Shown here in pieces: positions 3,074-30,281 of a stretch of DNA of 64,000 nucleotides (position 1 is the stretch's first letter; each line of letters begins with the position of its first letter). Under the pieces are notes generated by a model that saw only the letters and a program-made list of their open reading frames with translations, had not been told where the DNA came from and did not search any database. The translations under genes and the position numbers were made by a program. Source of the DNA: Bacillota bacterium (lineage in GTDB: Bacteria > Bacillota > Limnochordia > DTU087); NCBI GenBank assembly GCA_012798695.1, contig JAAZMR010000037.1, forward strand, positions 3,150 to 67,149. The letters run 5' to 3'.

Positions 3074-3151
3074 TGGTCGGGCTGACAGGATTCGAACCTG
3101 CGACCTCATGACCCCCAGTCATGCGCGCTAGCCAAACTGCGCCACAGCCCG
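3074..3151 (-). tRNA. tRNA-Pro, anticodon GGG, CCA encoded
   Basis: Reverse complement CGGGCTGTGGCGCAGTTTGGCTAGCGCGCATGACTGGGGGTCATGAGGTCGCAGGTTCGAATCCTGTCAGCCCGACCA folds as a cloverleaf with a TTCGAAT T-loop and CATGA/TCATG anticodon stem. Confidence 0.97.
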
Positions 3152-19886: not shown

Positions 19887-19911
19887 AAAAAAGCAGGCCT
19901 ATAGGCCTGCT
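19887..19911 (-). terminator. Intrinsic terminator after ispH-rpsA
   Basis: Perfect 20-bp palindrome AGCAGGCCTATAGGCCTGCT followed by a T-tract. Confidence 0.85.
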
Positions 19912-19962: not shown

Positions 19963-22254
19963 TTACTCTTCATCCTCGTCTTCATCGTCATCATTGTTAA
20001 ACAAGGCACCTAGATCTCCAACCAAGTCGCCAATCGTAACACCGGATCCTTCAGGTTCACGCTCGCTGTCGAACGTAGTTTCCTGTACAGGAGTGGGTTT
20101 GGGTTTGGCTTCCCGCTGCGCCTCCTTGATGCTTAGGCCGATGCGGCGAGCCTCCTCATCAATACTGATAATCTTGACCTTTACCAGTTCTCCTGATGTA
20201 ACCACTTCCTCTGTATTGGCCACATGCCGGTCTGCCAGTTGAGAGATGTGTACTAGACCTTCAACGCCGTCTTCTAGTTTAACGAAGGCGCCAAAATCTA
20301 CAGTGCGGGTAACTTCACCTTCAACAATATCTCCCTCATGATACTTGCTGCCAACATCATCCCAGGGGTCTGGTAGAGTCTGTTTTAGACCCAAAGAGAT
20401 CCGCTCAGTCTCTTTGTCCAGGTTGAGGATCATTACCTTAGTCTCCTGGCCTTCGGAAAGAATGTCTGATGGATGCCCTACTCGGCTATACGCCATTTCG
20501 GACACGTGTAGTAAGCCCTCTACACCACTTCCGATATCAACAAAGGCGCCGAAATCAGTCAATCGCCGTACGATTCCATCGACTATATCTCCTGGTTCAT
20601 AGGTGTTGAAAATAACCTCTTTCTGCTTCTCATATTCCTCTTCCAGCACTTCTTTATGTGAAAGAACCACATTGTTGCGCTGTTTGTCCAGCTCAATGAT
20701 TTTTAGCCGTAGGCTCTTGCCGACATAGGCTTCTAGGTCTTCAACATAATGGCGTGCTACATGAGATGCAGGTACAAAACCACGTACCCCTACATCCACC
20801 AAGAGACCACCCTTGACCCGTTCGGTCACGGTAGCCTCAATAAGCTCGTTCTTGTCATTGATCTCTTCGAGCTCTTGCCAGGCCTTAGCCTGATCAGCTC
20901 GACGCTTCGACAATACAACACTGCCTTCACTATCATCTATGCGGACAACATATACATCTATCTCATCGCCCACAGCCAACTTATCGGTTGGGTCCTCATC
21001 CGATTTAAGCCCCAGTTCATGTCTGGGGATGCGACCTTCCGATTTCCCTCCGACGTGTACTAGTACTTCGTCACTGCTGACTTGGACAACTTTACCGCTT
21101 ACGATATCCCCTTGGCTCGGGGTGATGAAGGTCTCGTCATATTGGGCCATGGTGGGGGCTTCCATCTCTGCGGAATCCTCATCAGTCTCCTCCACCGTGC
21201 TGGCACTAGCTTCATCCTCAGTTACTTCTTCTTTTGCTACCGCTTCAGCAGTTTCTTCTTCTGCTGTTGCCTCGGCAGCCCCTTGCTCGGCTACCTCTTC
21301 CGTGGCCACTTCTTCCACTGGCCCCTCAGCCGCTGCTTCCGTCTCCGTCTCCGGAGTGGTCTCTTCCTCTGTCACTGTCGCAGTCTGTGCTTTCCTTGCT
21401 TCTTGTTCTTGCATTCCCTCAAACTCGGTCATCCGTTGCACTACCTCCTCAATGAGCCAGTTAGGCGTAGATGCGCCTGCAGTGACACCCACCTTATCTC
21501 CGAGACGAAACCAGTGAGGCTCGATCTCCTCTGCTGTCTCAATATGATAGGTGCGTGCTCCGCTTTCCTGGCAAATCTGCGCCAACCGCGATGTGTTGGC
21601 ACTGTTGCGCCCGCCCACTACTAGCATGACGTCCACACGAGAGGCTAACTCGTGAGCCGCCTGCTGCCTGCGAGCGGTTGCTGTACAGATACTATCATAA
21701 AACTTTACTTCCCGGGCCTTTCCCACCAGCTCCGCAATACACGCCCGGTAATTGGACAACGATTGAGTTGTCTGAGCCACGGCCCCATAGCATTCGCCTA
21801 TGGGTAACGCGACCACTTCTTCGGGGTTGCCGGCTACTACCCCGGTGTTATCGGTAGCCCCTAGGATGGCAGTCACTTCCGGGTGATCCCGATCCCCAAC
21901 AATGACTACCTGGTAACCATCTCTCCTTAGGCCAGCCGCCCAGGTCATAGCTCGTACTACAAAAGGGCAAGTGGCATCAACCACCCGCAGCCCTTTTGCA
22001 CGGGCACGCTCTATGGTTTGGGGAGGCACTCCATGACTCCGGATAATAACCACACCGGTATCAATTTCCTCTATTCTATCTGCTACCTTGATTCCCCGTT
22101 CAGTTAGATGGGCCACAGTCTGGGGACTATGAATCAAAGGGCCTAGTGTATAGATGGGAACACCGTGATGTTCATCTGCGGTTCTCATCGCCGCGTCGAT
22201 GGCACGCTTTACCCCAAAACAGAACCCTGCGTTATCCGCTAACTCAACAATCAA
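19963..22254 (-). CDS. ispH: Bifunctional IspH (HMBPP reductase) / 30S ribosomal protein S1 fusion
   Basis: AGFCFGV, IIRSHG, DATCPFV, SICTAT, TAGASTP (IspH), then an acidic linker and four S1 repeats (LTDFGAFVDIG, EGLVHISQL). Probable TTG start at 22254 (SD GGAGGG). Confidence 0.95.
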   Translation of the reverse strand: MIVELADNAGFCFGVKRAIDAAMRTADEHHGVPIYTLGPLIHSPQTVAHLTERGIKVADRIEEIDTGVVIIRSHGVPPQTIERARAKGLRVVDATCPFVVRAMTWAAGLRRDGYQVVIVGDRDHPEVTAILGATDNTGVVAGNPEEVVALPIGECYGAVAQTTQSLSNYRACIAELVGKAREVKFYDSICTATARRQQAAHELASRVDVMLVVGGRNSANTSRLAQICQESGARTYHIETAEEIEPHWFRLGDKVGVTAGASTPNWLIEEVVQRMTEFEGMQEQEARKAQTATVTEEETTPETETEAAAEGPVEEVATEEVAEQGAAEATAEEETAEAVAKEEVTEDEASASTVEETDEDSAEMEAPTMAQYDETFITPSQGDIVSGKVVQVSSDEVLVHVGGKSEGRIPRHELGLKSDEDPTDKLAVGDEIDVYVVRIDDSEGSVVLSKRRADQAKAWQELEEINDKNELIEATVTERVKGGLLVDVGVRGFVPASHVARHYVEDLEAYVGKSLRLKIIELDKQRNNVVLSHKEVLEEEYEKQKEVIFNTYEPGDIVDGIVRRLTDFGAFVDIGSGVEGLLHVSEMAYSRVGHPSDILSEGQETKVMILNLDKETERISLGLKQTLPDPWDDVGSKYHEGDIVEGEVTRTVDFGAFVKLEDGVEGLVHISQLADRHVANTEEVVTSGELVKVKIISIDEEARRIGLSIKEAQREAKPKPTPVQETTFDSEREPEGSGVTIGDLVGDLGALFNNDDDEDEDEE

Positions 22255-22462
22255 GCCATCTTTTCCCTCCTGCCAGTAGTATTGGCCACCGGCGGCAACA
22301 AAAAACATCAGCCCCTATGATTTGTTCGGTACTGCCAGACCAAACCCTCCCTCTTGCCCACAGTTTGCGAAGAAAGTCGACGAAGTCAAATTAAGCTGAA
22401 CGGTCAAAGGAGCAACCGAATTCCTGAAGATGTTTTATGCCTTGGCCACCAATCGAACAGAT

Positions 22463-23083
22463 CTAGATACCACTTATTGCATGTGAGCGCAGCTCACCGA
22501 TCTTCTCCATGACTAGCTGACTATACTCTTCTAAGGCCTCTCGGGATGGCCTGGTTTCGTCTACGGGTAGATGAATGGGTTCACCAATAAAGACCTTGAT
22601 TTTGGCTGGTCTCGGAAACCATTTCCCCTTCGGAACAACGTTCTCCGCACCCACGATAGCCATGGGAACTATCGGCACCTGGGCCTTTGCCGCCAAAAGT
22701 ACGCAACCGGGTTGCGGCTTGAGTAAGATCTTGCCATTACCCCGAGTGCCCTCCGGGAAAATTCCTACTACTTGACCGGAACGCAACATCTCTATTGCCT
22801 GCCGCAGCGCTCTTCTATCCGCCCCTCTTTGCTGAACCGGAAAGGCATTGAGATGACGAATCAACCACCCCAATATTGGGATATTAAAGAGTTCTCTTTT
22901 TGCCATGAAATGTACTGGCCGTGCGACAGCACAACCCATTAATGGTGGATCAAGATAACTTACATGGTTGGCAGCCAGCAGGGCACCACCGGTTACCGGA
23001 AGATGCTCACTTCCACATACTTCCCAGCGAAAATAGAGACGGAAACAACCCCTAACCAAGCCTCTTATAAATTGGTAGAACAC
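22463..23083 (-). CDS. plsC: 1-acyl-sn-glycerol-3-phosphate acyltransferase
   Basis: NHVSYLD (HX4D), FMAK, FPEGTRG motifs. Confidence 0.93.
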   Translation of the reverse strand: MFYQFIRGLVRGCFRLYFRWEVCGSEHLPVTGGALLAANHVSYLDPPLMGCAVARPVHFMAKRELFNIPILGWLIRHLNAFPVQQRGADRRALRQAIEMLRSGQVVGIFPEGTRGNGKILLKPQPGCVLLAAKAQVPIVPMAIVGAENVVPKGKWFPRPAKIKVFIGEPIHLPVDETRPSREALEEYSQLVMEKIGELRSHAISGI

Positions 23084-23760
23084 CCATCGAACCCTCCCAC
23101 TGCAGAGAGATATCCAAGTATCTCCTCTACAACGGTATCTATGTCTTTACCGGTCGTATCCAATGGGATGGCGTCAGTTGCGGCCCTTAATGGTGCGACC
23201 AGCCTTTCAGCATCCAGATTGTCCCTGGCCCGAATGGAAAGCAATATATCCTTATATGTTACCTTATGTCCTTGGTTGCGTAGTTCCTTCATTCGTCGCC
23301 GAGCTCGCTCCTCAGCACTGGCAGTAAGAAATATCTTTAGGCCGGCATCAGGTAGCACAACCGTACCAATATCTCGCCCATCCATGACTACCCCACCATT
23401 AGATGCCAGTTGTCGCTGTAATGACAGAAGATGCTCTCTTACTCGGGGGTGTTGGGCCACAAGTGATACATTCTCACTGACCACAGGTTCCCGAATGGCA
23501 TCAGTCACATCTTCCTCTTTGAGCAAGACCTTAACTCCGCCATAACTAGAAACCATGCGAATTTGAGCTTCTTGGGAGAGTTTGGCCGTAGCTGCTTCAT
23601 CAGTGGGATCGACTCCTTTTCGTAAGACCAGGAGAGTCAGTGCTCTGTATAGGGCCCCAGTATCAATGTGCAAGTAACCTAACCGTTGTGCCAGCATCTT
23701 AGCTACTGAGCTCTTGCCCGCCCCTGCCGGGCCATCAATGGCGATATTACATCTGCCCAT
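23065..23760 (-). CDS. cmk: Cytidylate kinase
   Basis: IAIDGPAGAGKSS, DTGALYR, DGRDIGTVV, RDNLD motifs; start uncertain (23760-23793). Confidence 0.96.
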   Translation of the reverse strand: MGRCNIAIDGPAGAGKSSVAKMLAQRLGYLHIDTGALYRALTLLVLRKGVDPTDEAATAKLSQEAQIRMVSSYGGVKVLLKEEDVTDAIREPVVSENVSLVAQHPRVREHLLSLQRQLASNGGVVMDGRDIGTVVLPDAGLKIFLTASAEERARRRMKELRNQGHKVTYKDILLSIRARDNLDAERLVAPLRAATDAIPLDTTGKDIDTVVEEILGYLSAVGGFDGCSTNL

Positions 23761-23823
23761 CTGCAAAAAGATCTCCCTTCCCATCAGGAGCATGTCGTAA
23801 ATAAAGATATTACCTGTTCTTCT

Positions 23824-23875: not shown

Positions 23876-25198
23876 CTACATAAGCTGTGCATCTTTTGCT
23901 CTCTCTTCCAACTGGGCTCCCAACTGTCCAAAAGTACTGCAAAAACCGGGGAAAGATACTCCTACAGCATCTGCTCCTTGGATACATAGGGGTCCTTCAC
24001 CCCCAAGTCCTAGGACAGCTAAAGCCATCACTACTCTGTGGTCACCATGGCCACAAGTTTTGCCTCCTAATATCCTTTGACCCCCCCGCACCACCCAACC
24101 ATCGGCTTGTTCTTCGATGGCCACTCCTAATCGAGCCAGTTCCTGACTCATTATGGTGATGCGATCACATTCTTTGACCCTCAGTTCAGCCGCATCCCTG
24201 ATCCGAGTCGTGCCTTTTGCAAAGGCGGCTGCTACGGCCAACACGGGCAGCTCATCAATAAGAGTAGGTATGATGTCTCCCCCGATCTCAATACCCTCTA
24301 ACTCCGAAGACCGAACCCTGATGTTTCCCCGCGGCTCACCGCCTCCAGCTTTGGGTTCAACACTTAGATCGGCTCCCATTGCTTGCAGGACGGTGATGAC
24401 ACCCGTTCTGGTGGGATTAATTCCAACATTTTCTACGGTAAAATCGGAATTGGGCAGAATCGATCCAGCCACCATCAGATAAGCCGCGGAAGAAATGTCC
24501 CCTGGTACAATGATATGCCCTCCTTGGGGAATAGTACCGCCCGTGACAGTCACACTCAAGCCATCGATATCAACTGGCACGCCGAGATACTGCAGCATTA
24601 CTTCGGTATGATTACGAGAACGAGCGGGCTCTTTCACCCTGGTTTTGCCGTTGGCACTTAGTCCCGCCAACATGATAGCACTCTTTACCTGGGCACTGGC
24701 TATGGGTAGTTCGTGAGTCTGGCCCTGCAGATTCCGGCTTCCCACAATCGCCAAAGGGGCCCTCGTATGATCTACTCTACCATATATCTGCGCACCCATG
24801 GAGCGCAGTGGCTCGATCACCCGAGCCATGGGACGGGTTCGCAAAGAGGCATCTCCGGTCAAAACCGAGAAACACGGTTGTACTGCTAGTACACCTGCCA
24901 ATAATCGCATAGTGGTACCTGAATTGCCGCAATCCAGCACATTCTTGGGCTCCCGGAACCCTTCCTGCCCCCTGCCCATTATCTGATAGCTGCCTGGAGA
25001 CAGGCGTTCAATAGGTACTCCCAATAGTGATAAGCAACGCAGAGTCGCCAGACAATCGCTGCTCTCCAGGAACCCATCTATTCTGGTCGTGCCTTGGCCA
25101 AGAGCTGCCAGTATAGCGGCTCTGTGAGATATCGACTTATCTCCGGGAACACTTATTCTGCCCCTTAGGCCTCGGCTTGGTTCAACGTACAAGATCAC
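23876..25198 (-). CDS. aroA: EPSP synthase
   Basis: PGDKSISHRA, CGNSGTTMR, SAQVKSA, LIDELP, RVKECDRI, DHRVVM; probable GTG start at 25198. Confidence 0.96.
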   Translation of the reverse strand: MILYVEPSRGLRGRISVPGDKSISHRAAILAALGQGTTRIDGFLESSDCLATLRCLSLLGVPIERLSPGSYQIMGRGQEGFREPKNVLDCGNSGTTMRLLAGVLAVQPCFSVLTGDASLRTRPMARVIEPLRSMGAQIYGRVDHTRAPLAIVGSRNLQGQTHELPIASAQVKSAIMLAGLSANGKTRVKEPARSRNHTEVMLQYLGVPVDIDGLSVTVTGGTIPQGGHIIVPGDISSAAYLMVAGSILPNSDFTVENVGINPTRTGVITVLQAMGADLSVEPKAGGGEPRGNIRVRSSELEGIEIGGDIIPTLIDELPVLAVAAAFAKGTTRIRDAAELRVKECDRITIMSQELARLGVAIEEQADGWVVRGGQRILGGKTCGHGDHRVVMALAVLGLGGEGPLCIQGADAVGVSFPGFCSTFGQLGAQLEERAKDAQLM

Positions 25199-25246
25199 TG
25201 CCCAGATCCCCACTTCCCTTAGCTGCCCTTGAACCCATAGGGTCAA

Positions 25247-26347
25247 TCAACGACGGTAAGCCCGATATCCTTCAGCTTGCAGTAACCTCAAAGCCCGATC
25301 ACTGGACCGCCCATCTGCCAAACTAATGGATAACGCCCCTACCTCGCCTTCCCGCTGACGTACTATAGCAATATCTTTCAAGTTCAGATCGACACTCGCC
25401 AATAAACTGGTAACAGCACTGATCGCTCCAGGCATATCCGGAACTGGTACAATCAATTCAAATGATGGAGGTATCAGGCCTCTTTGGGCAACTGGAACTT
25501 GGGACCGCAAGGTACGAGCTTCTGCAAAAAACTCCCTTAAACTGGCCTCATCCTGGCTGAGCAGGGCCTCTTGCACGGTCTCCAGCTCATCCTGTAAATA
25601 TGCGATAGAGCGCAACACCGGTGCCCTGTTATGCAAGCAAATATCCGCCCAAAGCTCCGGCAACCCGGAAGCAACTCTGGTCGTATCCCTAAACCCACCG
25701 GCCGCTAGAGCCAAGGCCATCGGCACCTTTTCTGCTGTCTGACCCAAAGCGTTGACTAAAGCCGCCGCGGCCACGTGGGGCAAGTGACTAACCGCAGCTA
25801 CCACTTCGTCGTGCATACCAGGTTCCATGATCATGACATTGGAGCCTAGATCCTTCTCGAGCAAGTTAGACAAGCTGTGGAGTCTTTCCCTTTCTAAAAG
25901 AGTGGCTGTCGTTGGGGTAAGTACATAGACCGCATTTTCAAACAAATTGGAATCTGCGGCAAGAATACCTCCACGCTCAGAACCAGCCATTGGGTGCCCA
26001 CCGATAAATGCAAAAGGTGGGTCCATAGCCGCGATACCCTCCACAACCGGTCGCTTCACACTACCGACATCGGTAACAATGGCTCCAGGATTGACATAAG
26101 AGCTGATCTCCTGAACGGTTGTGACTATAGCTCCCACGGGAGTGGCAATGAAGATGAAGCTGCATCCCTCTGCCGCTGCCGCCGCACTCTCCGCCACGGC
26201 ATCAATTGCCCCTAGATGAAAAGCGGTCTGCATTCGCTCTTCAGTCACATCAAACCCGATAATGCGATACCCCTTGTCTCGCAATCGAAATGCCAGGGAG
26301 CCTCCAATTAGACCCAAGCCCAGGATAGCTATATTCTGTCTCGCCAT
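25247..26347 (-). CDS. tyrA: Prephenate/arogenate dehydrogenase with ACT domain
   Basis: GLGLIGGS, TDVGSVK, GGHPMAGSE, SHLPH, GFRDTTRVA, C-terminal ACT (VPDMPGAI). Confidence 0.94.
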   Translation of the reverse strand: MARQNIAILGLGLIGGSLAFRLRDKGYRIIGFDVTEERMQTAFHLGAIDAVAESAAAAAEGCSFIFIATPVGAIVTTVQEISSYVNPGAIVTDVGSVKRPVVEGIAAMDPPFAFIGGHPMAGSERGGILAADSNLFENAVYVLTPTTATLLERERLHSLSNLLEKDLGSNVMIMEPGMHDEVVAAVSHLPHVAAAALVNALGQTAEKVPMALALAAGGFRDTTRVASGLPELWADICLHNRAPVLRSIAYLQDELETVQEALLSQDEASLREFFAEARTLRSQVPVAQRGLIPPSFELIVPVPDMPGAISAVTSLLASVDLNLKDIAIVRQREGEVGALSISLADGRSSDRALRLLQAEGYRAYRR

Positions 26348-26351
26348 GGCA

Positions 26352-27383
26352 CTAAACCACCGTCAGAGATCCGCTTTTTCGCCCCACAGCCTGGGCCACG
26401 GACTTGATTTCTGACATCAATTGCCGGAAATTGACAGGGGTTAGTGATTGGGCCCCATCCGATAGCGCTTCTTCAGGTCGGCAGTGCACTTCTACCATCA
26501 ATCCATCGGCTCCGGCGGCAACCGCAGCCTTGGCCATGGGGGCGACATATCGCCACCGACCTGTCCCATGGCTCGGATCAACGATAATTGGCAGATGACT
26601 ATAATGCTTAACAGCCGGTACAGCACTCAAATCCAAAGTGTTCCTAGTACCCGTTTCGTACGTACGAATGCCTCGCTCGCAAAGAACCACATGATTGTTG
26701 CCACCAGAGATAATGTATTCTGCTGCCATCAGCCATTCCTCGACTGTAGCAGCCAAGCCTCTTTTCAGCAGTACTGGCTTCTGTGACCGCCCTACCTCTC
26801 TCAGCAGAGTGAAATTCTGCATATTGCGAGCACCGATCTGCAGCATATCCGCATATTCGGCAACCAACTCGATATCCCGAGGATTGGTGACTTCTGTAAC
26901 CACCGGCAGCCCTGTTTCCTGTCGCGCTAGAGCTAGAAGCCGTAATCCCTCTGCTTCAAGGCCCTGAAAGGAATATGGTGATGTGCGTGGCTTGAAAGCA
27001 CCGCCTCTCAGGATATGGGCTCCTGCTGCCTTAATCTCCCTGGCCACTTCCATGAGCTGCTCTTCCCCTTCCACAGCACATGGTCCGGCCATAACCACAA
27101 TCTCCTCGCCACCGATGGTTATATCGCCAACCTGTACCTTGGTCGGTTCCGGATGTAATTCCCGGCCAGCCAGCTTGAAGGGCTGCAAGATCGGGACGAT
27201 TTTCTCAACCCCCGGCATCGCTGCCAGCATTTCAATATATCCAGGGCGCTTCTCACCAATGGCACCTATGATGGTGCGCTCAACTCCCACCGACAGGTGG
27301 ATGTCAAAGCCAAGCTGCTTCAGCCGAATACCAACTGCATCTACCAATTCAGGAGACACTTTATGCTCCATAACGACAATCAC
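26352..27383 (-). CDS. aroF: DAHP synthase, type I-beta with N-terminal regulatory domain
   Basis: [48 protein letters not shown]; probable GTG start at 27383. Confidence 0.96.
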
Positions 27384-27410
27384 ATCATCCGCTCCCTTCA
27401 CCCAACGCTT

Positions 27411-28937
27411 CTACCTATGCAAGGCCTTCTCCAAAGCTTCGACAAACCGCCGGTTCTGTGCCTCAGTACCGATTGTTATCCGCAACCAATTGGCACAGCC
27501 AAAAATCGCACCACTGCGAGCTATTACCCCTTGATCAAGCAGCTTTTCATAGATCTCTTGACTATCCTGCTGCAGATTAAAGAAGATAAAATTCGTTTGC
27601 GTTGGGACATACTCAAGACCCAATCTAGAAAGCTCTTGATAAAGCCAGGCTTTGCCCGACTCATTTAGCTCTCTGCTTTCTCTTACGTGTTTCTCATCTT
27701 CTAAAGCGGCTAAAGCCCCGATCTGGGCTAGTGCATTGATATTAAAAGGTTCCCTTACCCGATGTATGAGTTCAGCAATATGGGGCGGTGCTATACCATA
27801 ACCAATTCTCAGCCCGGCCAGCCCATACACCTTGGAAAAAGTTCTGAGGACCACCACATTTTGTCCAGCCTTTACATACGAGAGAGTATCCGGGTAGTCT
27901 TCGGCCATTACATATTCATAGTAAGCTTCATCAAAGACAACCAAGATGCTGTCAGGTATCTTGGCGAGAAAAGCCTCGACGGCCCCTTGATTGACATAGG
28001 CGCCAGTGGGATTATTGGGATTGCAGATAAACACGATCTTGGTGTTGGGGGTTATGGCCTGAGCCACGGATTCCAGATCAAACGCATAACTAGCCAATGG
28101 CAAAGATCGAGTTCTTGCTCCCATTAGGTGTGCCGCATAGGCATATTCACTAAAAGTCGGCTCACAAAACAGTACTTCATCTCCGGGCTCCAGGAAGGTC
28201 AAACCCAGCATCTTGATCACTTCATCAGAGCCATTGCCAAAGATCAATTGCATATCCTGAACACCTAGCTTATCAGCTAGGGCCTGACGCAGTTCAAAGC
28301 AACTGCCATCAGGATAAATATGTAAGGAAGACAATGATTGCTTCAGTGCCTCGACGGCTTTTGGTGACGGGCCCAGAGGGTTTTCATTGGAAGCCAACTT
28401 GACAATATCAACAAGGCCCTTTTCCCTCTGCAGTTCACTAATAGGCTTGCCAGGCTGGTATGGGGCAATCTCCAATATAGTCTGACGATAGGCGGGAGTT
28501 GTCGTATCCTGTCGGTCTCGGTCTTGACATAACGGTCGGGAGTGGGGATCGGTAGGCACAGCGCTTCTGGCTAGATCAGGCCTCAAACTGGCTGCCTTTC
28601 CCAGATATATGTGCTGCATATCCTGAAGCTTGCGATTCGTCGATACCAGCATCAAAGCCCTGATACAACGCGGTAGACTGCCTGGAACCGGAATCTCGTT
28701 AGTACATAAAAGCGCCGTTTCTGTAAGACCCGCCTGACGAGCACCCGCCGCCGGAAAACTCGCATCCAGGTCTTGTGTTACTGAGAAAATGATGCAAGCA
28801 ATCTCTTCTGCATCCACTTGGTTAGCAGCCATCATGGTTTTCGTGAGACGATATGCAGCATCTTTAATCAAAACTTCTGTATTCTCGTCTACAGTAACAG
28901 CTCCCCGAATCCCCCGGGTGACTGGAAATGTCAGCAT
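27411..28937 (-). CDS. Fused AroH-type chorismate mutase / HisC-family (histidinol-phosphate or aromatic) aminotransferase
   Basis: N-terminal RGIRGA...FPAAGAR...NEIPVPGSLPRCIR...HIYL..A.SLRPDL (AroH), then a ~28 aa linker, then PYQPGKP, LASNENP, GNGSDE, NPNNPTG, DEAY, RTFSKVYGLAGLR (HisC). One ORF; ATG 28937 behind GGAGG. Confidence 0.9.
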   Translation of the reverse strand: MLTFPVTRGIRGAVTVDENTEVLIKDAAYRLTKTMMAANQVDAEEIACIIFSVTQDLDASFPAAGARQAGLTETALLCTNEIPVPGSLPRCIRALMLVSTNRKLQDMQHIYLGKAASLRPDLARSAVPTDPHSRPLCQDRDRQDTTTPAYRQTILEIAPYQPGKPISELQREKGLVDIVKLASNENPLGPSPKAVEALKQSLSSLHIYPDGSCFELRQALADKLGVQDMQLIFGNGSDEVIKMLGLTFLEPGDEVLFCEPTFSEYAYAAHLMGARTRSLPLASYAFDLESVAQAITPNTKIVFICNPNNPTGAYVNQGAVEAFLAKIPDSILVVFDEAYYEYVMAEDYPDTLSYVKAGQNVVVLRTFSKVYGLAGLRIGYGIAPPHIAELIHRVREPFNINALAQIGALAALEDEKHVRESRELNESGKAWLYQELSRLGLEYVPTQTNFIFFNLQQDSQEIYEKLLDQGVIARSGAIFGCANWLRITIGTEAQNRRFVEALEKALHR

Positions 28938-28971
28938 TGGACCGACCTCCATCTTGAGTTAGTTTGACGAT

Positions 28972-29006: not shown

Positions 29007-30281
29007 TTAGGACAATGACTTGGCCGCATGTAACCCTGCCACATACCCCGTCGTAAATGCAGCCTGCAGGTTGAAACCTCCGGTATCGGCGGCCAAATTG
29101 AGCACTTCTCCCCCAAAGGACAAACCACTTACCAACCGGGAAGCCATGGTTTTTGGATCAACTTCATCAAGGCAGACACCTCCGACAGTAACAATGGCGG
29201 CTGACAAGGGCAGTGTCCCGGTCACCGTCAGAGACAATCCCTTCAGTACCTTCAGCAACTGGTGACGTTCAGCTTTGGTCACCTGATGAACCGGGCGGTT
29301 TGGAGATATCATGCTTTCTGCAATGATAACCGGCGCTAGTGCCCGCGGAAGCAGATCAAATAGGCTATTTTTGATTGCCTTCCGAGCATATAGACGAAAA
29401 TCGCGCTGCAGCCGAGCATCAAGCTGGTCTTCATCTAGGGCTGGTTTTAGATCAATCTCTAACCGAAGGAGCGTACCCGAATTTACCCTCGGTGAAACCA
29501 AACGGCTCAATGTCAAGATAATCGGGCCACTCACTCCAAAATGGGTGATTAACATTTCTCCGAATTCAGAGCCGATCAGCTCATCCCCGTCGAACAACCT
29601 GGCCTTGACATTGCGCAGGCTAAGTCCAGATACTTCCTTCACCCATTCTTCCTTGACTTTCAGTGGTACTAAGGCCGGATGAATTGGGCGAATTGTGTGT
29701 CCCAGTTTTTTCGCCATTATGTAACCATCTCCGGTAGAGCCGGTTCCCGGATATGAGGCACCACCAGTAGCTAGTATTACCTTGTCGGCGGGTAGGATAG
29801 TATCATCGCTCAACCGCACACCAGTAATACGTTGCTGCACGCAGTCATTCACTTCTGAACTTGCTGTGCTAATAATCTTTTGTACTGCAGAGTTGAGCCT
29901 GATCTCTACACCCGCTTGTTTGACGTAGCCTTCCAGCACCTTGACAACATCTTGGGCCCGGCCAGAGGTAGGAAACACCCGCTGCCCCCGCTCGACCACT
30001 AGTTCAAGCCCCCGCTCAGCAAAAAAACTCTGAGTATCAAGCGGAGGGAAAGTATTCAGGGGACCATAAAGAAACTTGCCTTCGGGACCAAACTTAGCCA
30101 CAACCTCTTCAATCTCACAGGCATTGGTCAAGTTGCAGCGGCCCTTGCCGGTAATCAGTAATTTCTTGCCCAAGATCCGGTTCTTCTCCAACAAGACCAC
30201 CTGGGCACCCGCCCTTGCCGCGGTTCCGGCTGCCATCATCCCGGCAGCTCCACCACCGATGACAATGACCCTGCTGCTCAT
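29007..30281 (-). CDS. HI0933/YtfP-family flavoprotein oxidoreductase
   Basis: GGGAAGMMAA, ITGKGRCNLTN, TGGASYPGTGSTGDG, THFGVSGP, TGGFNLQAA motifs. Confidence 0.93.
   Translation of the reverse strand: MSSRVIVIGGGAAGMMAAGTAARAGAQVVLLEKNRILGKKLLITGKGRCNLTNACEIEEVVAKFGPEGKFLYGPLNTFPPLDTQSFFAERGLELVVERGQRVFPTSGRAQDVVKVLEGYVKQAGVEIRLNSAVQKIISTASSEVNDCVQQRITGVRLSDDTILPADKVILATGGASYPGTGSTGDGYIMAKKLGHTIRPIHPALVPLKVKEEWVKEVSGLSLRNVKARLFDGDELIGSEFGEMLITHFGVSGPIILTLSRLVSPRVNSGTLLRLEIDLKPALDEDQLDARLQRDFRLYARKAIKNSLFDLLPRALAPVIIAESMISPNRPVHQVTKAERHQLLKVLKGLSLTVTGTLPLSAAIVTVGGVCLDEVDPKTMASRLVSGLSFGGEVLNLAADTGGFNLQAAFTTGYVAGLHAAKSLS

Follow-up and report, generated by a model that had tools for sequence, protein, structure and literature searches.

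An in-frame fusion of an AroH-type chorismate mutase to a HisC-family aminotransferase in Limnochordia

Can a chorismate mutase of the AroH fold, which is treated as monofunctional (PMC8408635), form one protein with the aminotransferase of its gene neighbourhood, and what would such a protein do in the cell? The question is raised by a 64,000-nucleotide (nt) stretch of DNA from a Bacillota bacterium (GTDB lineage Bacteria; Bacillota; Limnochordia; DTU087), corresponding to positions 3,150 to 67,149 of contig JAAZMR010000037.1 in assembly GCA_012798695.1 and referred to here as the window. On its reverse strand a single open reading frame (ORF), the aroH-hisC fusion gene, joins an AroH domain to a HisC-family aminotransferase domain. 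A sequence-only reading of the window had described a 508-amino-acid (aa) ORF in which a complete AroH is joined to a complete HisC, together with a set of motifs. All of these motifs are present in the protein (RGIRGA at 8-13, NEIPVPG at 80-86, CIR at 91-93, HIYL at 109-112, LRPDL at 118-122 and TFSKVYG at 366-372), and all four domain profiles exceed their curated cut-offs. The fusion is a new combination of well-known domains, which is uncharacterised and systematically mis-annotated.

Architecture of the fused protein

The ORF listing gives a single frame of 513 aa when counted from the first ATG (27411..28952, reverse strand). The probable start lies at ATG 28937, behind a Shine-Dalgarno motif read directly from the sequence (Table 1), and results in an N-terminus, MLSFPVTRGIRGA, that is conserved among homologues; use of the alternative in-frame ATG at 28952 would lengthen the protein by 5 aa. 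The predicted product is one polypeptide of ~56 kDa.

The first quarter of this polypeptide is an AroH domain. Residues 8-122 match Pfam CM_1 (PF07736) with an E-value of 1.8e-40 and 138.4 bits (cut-off 27), over positions 2-116 of the 116 in the profile, and the same residues match TIGR01796 (aroH) with 120.7 bits against a cut-off of 82. Homology to the monofunctional AroH enzymes of B. subtilis (1com/2cht), Thermus thermophilus (1ode/1ufy) and C. thermocellum (1xho) extends over the whole domain, with E-values of 1e-19 to 1e-29. In contrast to these enzymes, which are stand-alone proteins of ~120-130 aa, the AroH of the fusion runs on into a 385-aa C-terminal extension. This is a point of difference, and the domain stays in the fold family.

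The residues that form the hydrogen-bonding active site of the B. subtilis chorismate mutase, Arg7, Arg63, Cys75, Glu78, Arg90 and Tyr108 (PMC5458464), are shared by the fused AroH, where their equivalents are R11, R67, C78, E81, R93 and Y111 (plus R119). The register was taken from the match to 1com (residues 7-124 to 3-121) and from the identity of the motifs, with a one-residue gap that is not exactly placed. In an alignment of 27 fused proteins, R11, R67, E81, R93 and Y111 are invariant and C78 is nearly so.

The C-terminal part is a HisC-family (class II) aminotransferase. Pfam Aminotran_1_2 (PF00155) matches residues 177-502 (E 5.3e-68) and TIGR01141 (hisC) residues 151-504, with 375.3 bits against a cut-off of 276.55 and over profile positions 1-348 of 349. 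Among solved HisC structures the Listeria innocua protein 3ffh matches best, and in a Foldseek comparison the domain, taken from the predicted model described below, resembles both 3get and 3ffh with a target-normalised TM-score of 0.92 and a root-mean-square deviation of 2.1-2.4 Å. Searches of the PDB by sequence and with Foldseek returned no entry spanning both the AroH and the HisC domain. Invariant among the 27 fused proteins are SNEN 183-186, GNGSD 234-238, N309 (NNPTG), D336 and Y339 (DEAY), K369 (RTFSK), R377, R474 and R486. We take these to have the binding roles, for pyridoxal 5'-phosphate (PLP) and for the substrate, that their counterparts have in the HisC structures of E. coli and T. 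maritima. Two proteins of another family (P0032 and P0042, family f10) carry a ~40-aa Gly/Ala/Glu-rich insertion in the HisC domain, immediately ahead of GNGSDE (columns 304-343 of the fused-protein alignment).

Between the domains lies a linker, LARSAVPTDPHSRPLCQDRDRQDTTT, an Asp/Arg/Thr/Pro-rich stretch at about residues 123-147. An AlphaFold2 monomer model of the fusion, built on the alignment of fused proteins, has a mean predicted local distance difference test (pLDDT) score of 89.9. Values below 50 are limited to residues 124-145, and the linker is therefore predicted to be disordered. Among fused relatives, linkers are about 10-40 aa long, of low complexity and variable in both length and sequence; they are unalignable between families and differ even inside the window's own family. 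A start-codon scan of the linker agrees with the sequence-only reading in finding no in-frame ATG; the sole alternative start is a GTG at residue 127, and the scan detected no Shine-Dalgarno-like motif ahead of it.

Conservation, annotation and origin of the fused frame

The source genome, with an estimated completeness of 100%, is a draft assembled from metagenome data in 130 contigs, and its own gene call at this locus is 402 aa long. The draft state and the short call would fit two ordinary genes merged through an error of sequencing or assembly, or through contig chimerism. Three metagenome runs from separate studies (biogas, digester and sludge) argue against such an artefact: their Logan contigs span 28446-28747 or more with zero indels and an identical linker, and contain one silent-looking C>T substitution, outside the linker. 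The sequence-only reading had named a stop codon or an indel in the linker as what raw reads might reveal, and none is present in these contigs. All 12 species genomes from the window's family keep the two-domain frame free of stops, their proteins being 66-77% identical to that of the window. Altogether 28 species genomes have the frame, among them the complete genome of the cultured Limnochorda pilosa (WP_158509602.1; 508 aa; CM_1 + Aminotran_1_2). In addition, metagenome proteins with CM_1 + Aminotran_1_2, at 43-77% identity, number in the dozens in a database of 5.8 billion proteins. The independent contigs, the 12 family genomes, the 28 species and L. pilosa refute an artefact, an explanation we find scarcely credible. 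The fusion is genuine, conserved and in-frame, far beyond what chance would produce.

In the deposited annotation the fusion is invisible because the gene call of the source genome starts at M107, inside AroH (window 27411-28619, reverse strand; 402 aa). Its relatives are treated similarly: the RefSeq name of the L. pilosa protein is 'histidinol-phosphate transaminase' only, an older GenBank call for the same organism (BAS27631.1) is cut to 406 aa, and the NCBI annotation of the fused relative P0014 consists of a 362-aa HisC only. Profile searches of the source genome found no AroQ-type (CM_2) domain and one CM_1 domain, that of the fusion; given the estimated 100% completeness of the genome, the fusion holds its sole recognisable chorismate mutase. 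The synthase of DAHP (3-deoxy-D-arabinoheptulosonate 7-phosphate) encoded next to the fusion leads to the same conclusion, since its regulatory domain is ferredoxin-like, in contrast to the AroQ domain of the compared Bacillus/Listeria system. As calls of 402, 406 and 362 aa remove or destroy this only chorismate mutase domain, Phe/Tyr synthesis can look incomplete.

How widespread is the fused gene? Counting uninterrupted fused frames in 95 Limnochordia species genomes gave 28 (~30%). The 12 of 12 genomes of the window's family (f1) are accompanied by all members with a match in f6 (8 genomes), f10 (3 genomes) and f13 (2 genomes), and by 2 of 6 genomes in f8 and 1 of 4 in f3. A cluster look-up named relatives as Limnochordia. 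In a 400-genome sample of the phylum, HisC is stand-alone in almost all other genomes, and the outgroup state is clearly 'separate'; one family outside the class (f21) is fused. The sequence-only reading had considered that the architecture might be both common and already characterised. The first half holds in so far as ~30% of Limnochordia species and the RefSeq protein of L. pilosa carry it; as to the second, full-text literature searches turned up no account of a protein of this kind.

The unfused relatives are informative about how the fusion came about. The ancestral Firmicute gene order is aroG > aroB > aroH > hisHb > tyrA > aroF (Song et al. 2005, PMC1173090), with the two genes adjacent. 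In unfused relatives, including a sister family of the same order, aroH ends a few nt before hisC or overlaps it. In several genomes aroH and hisC share a frame and are kept apart by no more than one or two stop codons: two TAG codons in G015 (C130:23659-25152), one TAG codon in G065 (C23:84550-85998), and one or two stops (TAG, TAA or TGA) in G420, G287, G408, G433 and G296. Such genomes are one point mutation short of a fusion, or just past one.

A maximum-likelihood tree of 52 HisC domains, which is unrooted, recovers the taxonomic families as monophyletic, and within each of f8 and f3 fused and unfused genes come out as sisters. By parsimony the fused state changes five times on this tree, and at least three changes are forced by well-supported branches. 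Constraining all fused genes to one clade was 128.7 log-likelihood units worse, and a single clade was rejected by the approximately unbiased (AU) test (p = 5e-7). Thus, the fusion arose or was lost several times in Limnochordia, plus in at least one other family. Gains and losses are inseparable here because the gene tree is unrooted; the origin is most simply read as stop codons lost, or frames shifted, more than once between coupled adjacent genes. The sequence-only reading had held that the fusion does not look like a merely lost stop codon. This stands in the sense that it is no fresh, pseudogene-like stop loss, being conserved in 12 of 12 family genomes and in relatives, but in evolutionary terms it is exactly that, a stop loss or frame shift between adjacent and often overlapping genes.

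The repeated changes of state in the tree would also fit near-neutrality, with the fusion as a by-product of overlapping genes and the one ORF still giving rise to two proteins, through cutting of the tether or through an internal start for HisC. Several observations point in this direction: linkers are poorly conserved at about 10 to 40 aa, some family members still have the Met of the former HisC start (MPSYRK...), P0014 is called as 362 aa, and gene callers choose internal starts that give 402-406 aa. In the window, however, the linker contains no ATG and nothing resembling a Shine-Dalgarno motif, and that Met is lost (TPAYRQ), while a start at M107 would destroy AroH and with it the only chorismate mutase. 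Moreover, the fused frame is kept in 12 of 12 species of the window's family and in all matched members of f6, f10 and f13. On balance we regard the production of two separate proteins as unlikely.

Cellular role of the two domains

What, then, would a single protein with both domains do? Inferring its activities, substrate range, oligomeric state and selective advantage from the sequence, we consider it likely that the fusion consists of two active enzymes on a flexible tether, which bracket the post-chorismate branch and which became joined by recurrent stop loss. The AroH domain, as the only chorismate mutase of the genome, would convert chorismate to prephenate, which would then pass to the co-operonic TyrA-ACT and to the prephenate dehydratase, encoded on another contig of the source genome. 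The C-terminal domain, as a broad-specificity aminotransferase of the type called 'HisHb' in the Jensen nomenclature, would transaminate 4-hydroxyphenylpyruvate and phenylpyruvate. In most fused lineages the same domain would also make histidinol phosphate, with imidazole-acetol phosphate as the substrate. The joining itself may go back to the ancestral aromatic operon of Firmicutes, in which aroH and hisHb are neighbours coupled in translation, and to a lost stop codon or a shifted frame between the two.

The assignment of the C-terminal domain to aromatic synthesis draws on its genomic position. The fusion stands at the head of the gene order hisHb > tyrA > aroF > cmk > (plsC) > ispH-rpsA, and a linkage group hisHb > tyrA > aroF (> cmk > rpsA) has been defined (PMC1173090). 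By analogy, this position in the supraoperon would mark the fused HisC as the aromatic aminotransferase 'HisHb' (PMC1173090). The two fused activities are probably the first and the last step after chorismate, because TyrA matches the B. anthracis prephenate dehydrogenase-ACT (5uyy/6u60) from end to end (residues 3-364, ACT included). As the two activities would not be consecutive, the likely benefit of the fusion is co-production in a fixed 1:1 ratio and co-localisation, possibly combined with a trimer-by-dimer assembly, and direct substrate channelling between the domains is unlikely.

Several lines of evidence point to a role in histidine synthesis as well. The his operon of the source genome, hisZ-hisG-hisD-hisB-hisA-hisF-hisIE (G000 C17:91000-97300; locus L103 3001-9287), is without hisC, and its hisB-hisA interval contains no ORF of at least 120 aa for hisH. 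Nine fused genomes were examined, drawn from six further families and each with hisD; in eight of these the fused HisC is the only HisC match above the cut-off. As the sole HisC-level gene in the presence of hisD, the fused HisC must serve histidine synthesis in those eight genomes. Similarly, the hisC gene of Bacillus and Listeria is no part of the his operon, and its product probably contributes to the synthesis of histidine as well as of aromatic amino acids. As with the 'HisHb' of Bacillus type, the fused HisC thus probably acts in the synthesis of histidine and of Phe/Tyr, and judged by its sequence the fusion enzyme is probably bifunctional, and in most lineages trifunctional.

An alternative is that the two fused steps are consecutive. 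The sequence-only reading had proposed a coupling of chorismate to prephenate to arogenate, in which HisC would be a prephenate aminotransferase, and arogenate would be the substrate of TyrA and of the dehydratase. A tether would then favour the hand-over of the labile prephenate; a chorismate mutase and an aminotransferase are covalently joined in one operon with TyrA, and the recurrence of the fusion in the same domain order hints at a functional benefit. However, residues 3-364 of TyrA match the prephenate dehydrogenase-ACT of B. anthracis, the sole HisC-level gene of most fused genomes must handle imidazole-acetol phosphate, and a long linker predicted to be disordered offers no fixed geometry for channelling. 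To our knowledge, the HisC family is also not among the aminotransferase classes with shown prephenate aminotransferase activity, which we count against this alternative. The coupling is for these reasons not favoured, and we judge it to be rather improbable.

A separate matter is how the fused protein would assemble. AroH is a trimer, whose active sites lie where the subunits meet, and HisC is a dimer. A 1:1 tether between the two predicts at least a D3 hexamer, and a trimer-by-dimer (3x2) higher-order assembly, also suggested by the sequence-only reading, is a reasonable inference by analogy with the separate enzymes. Taken further, the protein might form a closed particle, a D3 hexamer of ~340 kDa or a larger cage, that scaffolds a post-chorismate metabolon in which HisC also accepts prephenate. 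If so, HisC would represent a fourth class of prephenate aminotransferase, a single particle would carry chorismate through to arogenate, and the repeated fusion would reflect selection for assembly. We consider such a particle very unlikely.

We therefore favour two tethered enzymes at either end of the post-chorismate branch, against which the following should be weighed. The source genome encodes a second HisC-level paralogue (G000 C54:9484-11746; locus L007 6484-8746; 324.8 bits to TIGR01141), which is 41% identical to the fused HisC domain and present in 11 of 12 family genomes, and which makes the role of the fused domain in histidine synthesis uncertain in this particular genome. The substrate specificity of HisC-family enzymes is unreadable from sequence. 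That of TyrA is predicted from overall similarity; for TyrA of clades I and II, a published rule ties the choice of arogenate versus prephenate to position 222 (PMC5681985). The fusion protein may be cleaved in its linker, and part of the apparent recurrence of fusion may reflect fissions, the gene tree being unrooted. As to its surroundings, the second paralogue starts 1 nt after a gene of the glycerol dehydrogenase family, and lies ahead of an aliphatic-sulfonate-type ABC transporter.

Operon context, related fusions and significance

The fusion gene and its neighbours are listed in Table 1. The upstream flavoprotein gene ends 70 nt before the fusion gene, and a scan of the interval for promoters and terminators predicted no sigma-70 consensus promoter and no terminator, so that transcription from further upstream may run on into the aromatic operon. 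A candidate promoter spotted by eye (TTGCAT-17-TAAGAT) was below the threshold of the scan and was given no weight. At the other end, the supraoperon is closed by a second fusion of neighbouring genes, ispH-rpsA, an ORF of 781 aa in which IspH/LytB (residues 21-293) is followed by a four-repeat ribosomal protein S1.

Table 1. Coordinates of the aroH-hisC fusion gene, its parts and the neighbouring genes in the window (EPSP, 5-enolpyruvylshikimate-3-phosphate)
Feature	Position	Strand	Remarks
HI0933-like flavoprotein gene	29007-30281	-	upstream of the fusion gene
Shine-Dalgarno GGAGG	28946..28950	-	8-nt spacer to ATG 28937
aroH-hisC fusion gene	27411..28937	-	508 aa + stop; probable start ATG 28937; N-terminus kept in homologues
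AroH (CM_1) domain	28572..28916	-	residues 8-122; profile matches
Inter-domain linker	28497..28571	-	residues 123-147, ~25 aa, low complexity
HisC-family (class II) aminotransferase domain	27414..28496	-	residues 148-508, includes N-terminal arm AYRQTILEIAPYQPGKP
PLP-binding lysine K369 codon (RTFSK motif)	27831..27833	-	invariant in 27 fused proteins
Type I-beta DAHP synthase, N-terminal ferredoxin-like regulatory domain	26352..27401	-	next gene after fusion; profile matches
tyrA, prephenate dehydrogenase + C-terminal ACT	25247..26347	-	profile matches
EPSP synthase gene	23876..25246	-	profile match
cmk	23065-23793	-	supraoperon remainder
plsC-like acyltransferase	22463-23083	-	supraoperon remainder
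ispH(lytB)-rpsA fusion	19963-22308	-	supraoperon remainder
Strong terminator-like hairpin	19892-19911	-	after ispH-rpsA, supraoperon end

Both enzyme families are also found, in unchanged order and with matching neighbours (tyrA-ACT, EPSP synthase, cmk...rpsA), in the aromatic operon of Bacillus and Listeria (PMC1173090). In contrast to the window, where one frame holds both with a 25-aa tether, aroH and hisC are separate genes there, and in B. subtilis the trp operon even stands between them. This separation had already been pointed out in the sequence-only reading, in agreement with the published analysis (PMC1173090).

Fusions are well known in the aromatic pathway, such as the AroQ-PheA P-protein, the AroQ-TyrA T-protein, TyrA-AroF and AroQ-DAHP synthase (PMC1173090; PMC10520331), as well as a hisHb-tyrA fusion in Rhodobacter sphaeroides (PMC1173090). 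Like the fusion described here, these join neighbours of the supraoperon and involve a HisC-type aminotransferase or a chorismate mutase; the pair of partners differs, and none of the papers found describes AroH together with HisC. When AroH itself is considered, a wider range of partners becomes apparent. A word-indexed search with the AroH part alone returned only 17 proteins, and for this reason an exhaustive search of 1.84 billion representatives was used for a census. It gave 1674 relatives, and among the best 150 of these, 34 are at least 237 aa long. The Pfam partners of AroH in the 34 long representatives are cytidylate kinase (9), prephenate dehydratase with or without ACT (8), class I/II aminotransferase (4), TyrA (4) and DAHP synthase (2), and single cases include TrpA, type II dehydroquinase and others (see also P0121-P0124). 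AroH is N-terminal in the fusions with prephenate dehydratase-ACT and with DAHP synthase, and stands at either end in other long representatives. As with HisC, the partners come from among the neighbours of the aromatic supraoperon, but their identity differs. Fusions of AroH with its supraoperon neighbours are apparently a wider and undescribed phenomenon, in which the HisC version is rare; no characterised example among them came to light. This range conflicts with the reputation of AroH as a monofunctional enzyme.

For the biology of the group, the finding means that the sole chorismate mutase of abundant biogas-reactor bacteria is concealed under the name 'histidinol-phosphate transaminase'. 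Auxotrophies of Limnochordia have been reported as numerous (PMC9347119); with AroH clipped from the gene calls they may be over-called, and pathway reconstructions for this digester group can be corrected. Within a single class there is a natural fusion series, passed through several times, from overlapping genes to genes that are in frame and separated by one stop, and on to fused genes with a fast-evolving linker. As a natural fusion of a trimer to a dimer, the protein should yield a symmetric higher-order assembly, and AroH trimers are already parts of designed assemblies, judging by the names of PDB entries 4nwo and 7l85. For enzymology, the textbook 'monofunctional' AroH is here fused to a partner that probably serves two pathways, and the cultured carrier L. 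pilosa makes the fusion experimentally tractable.

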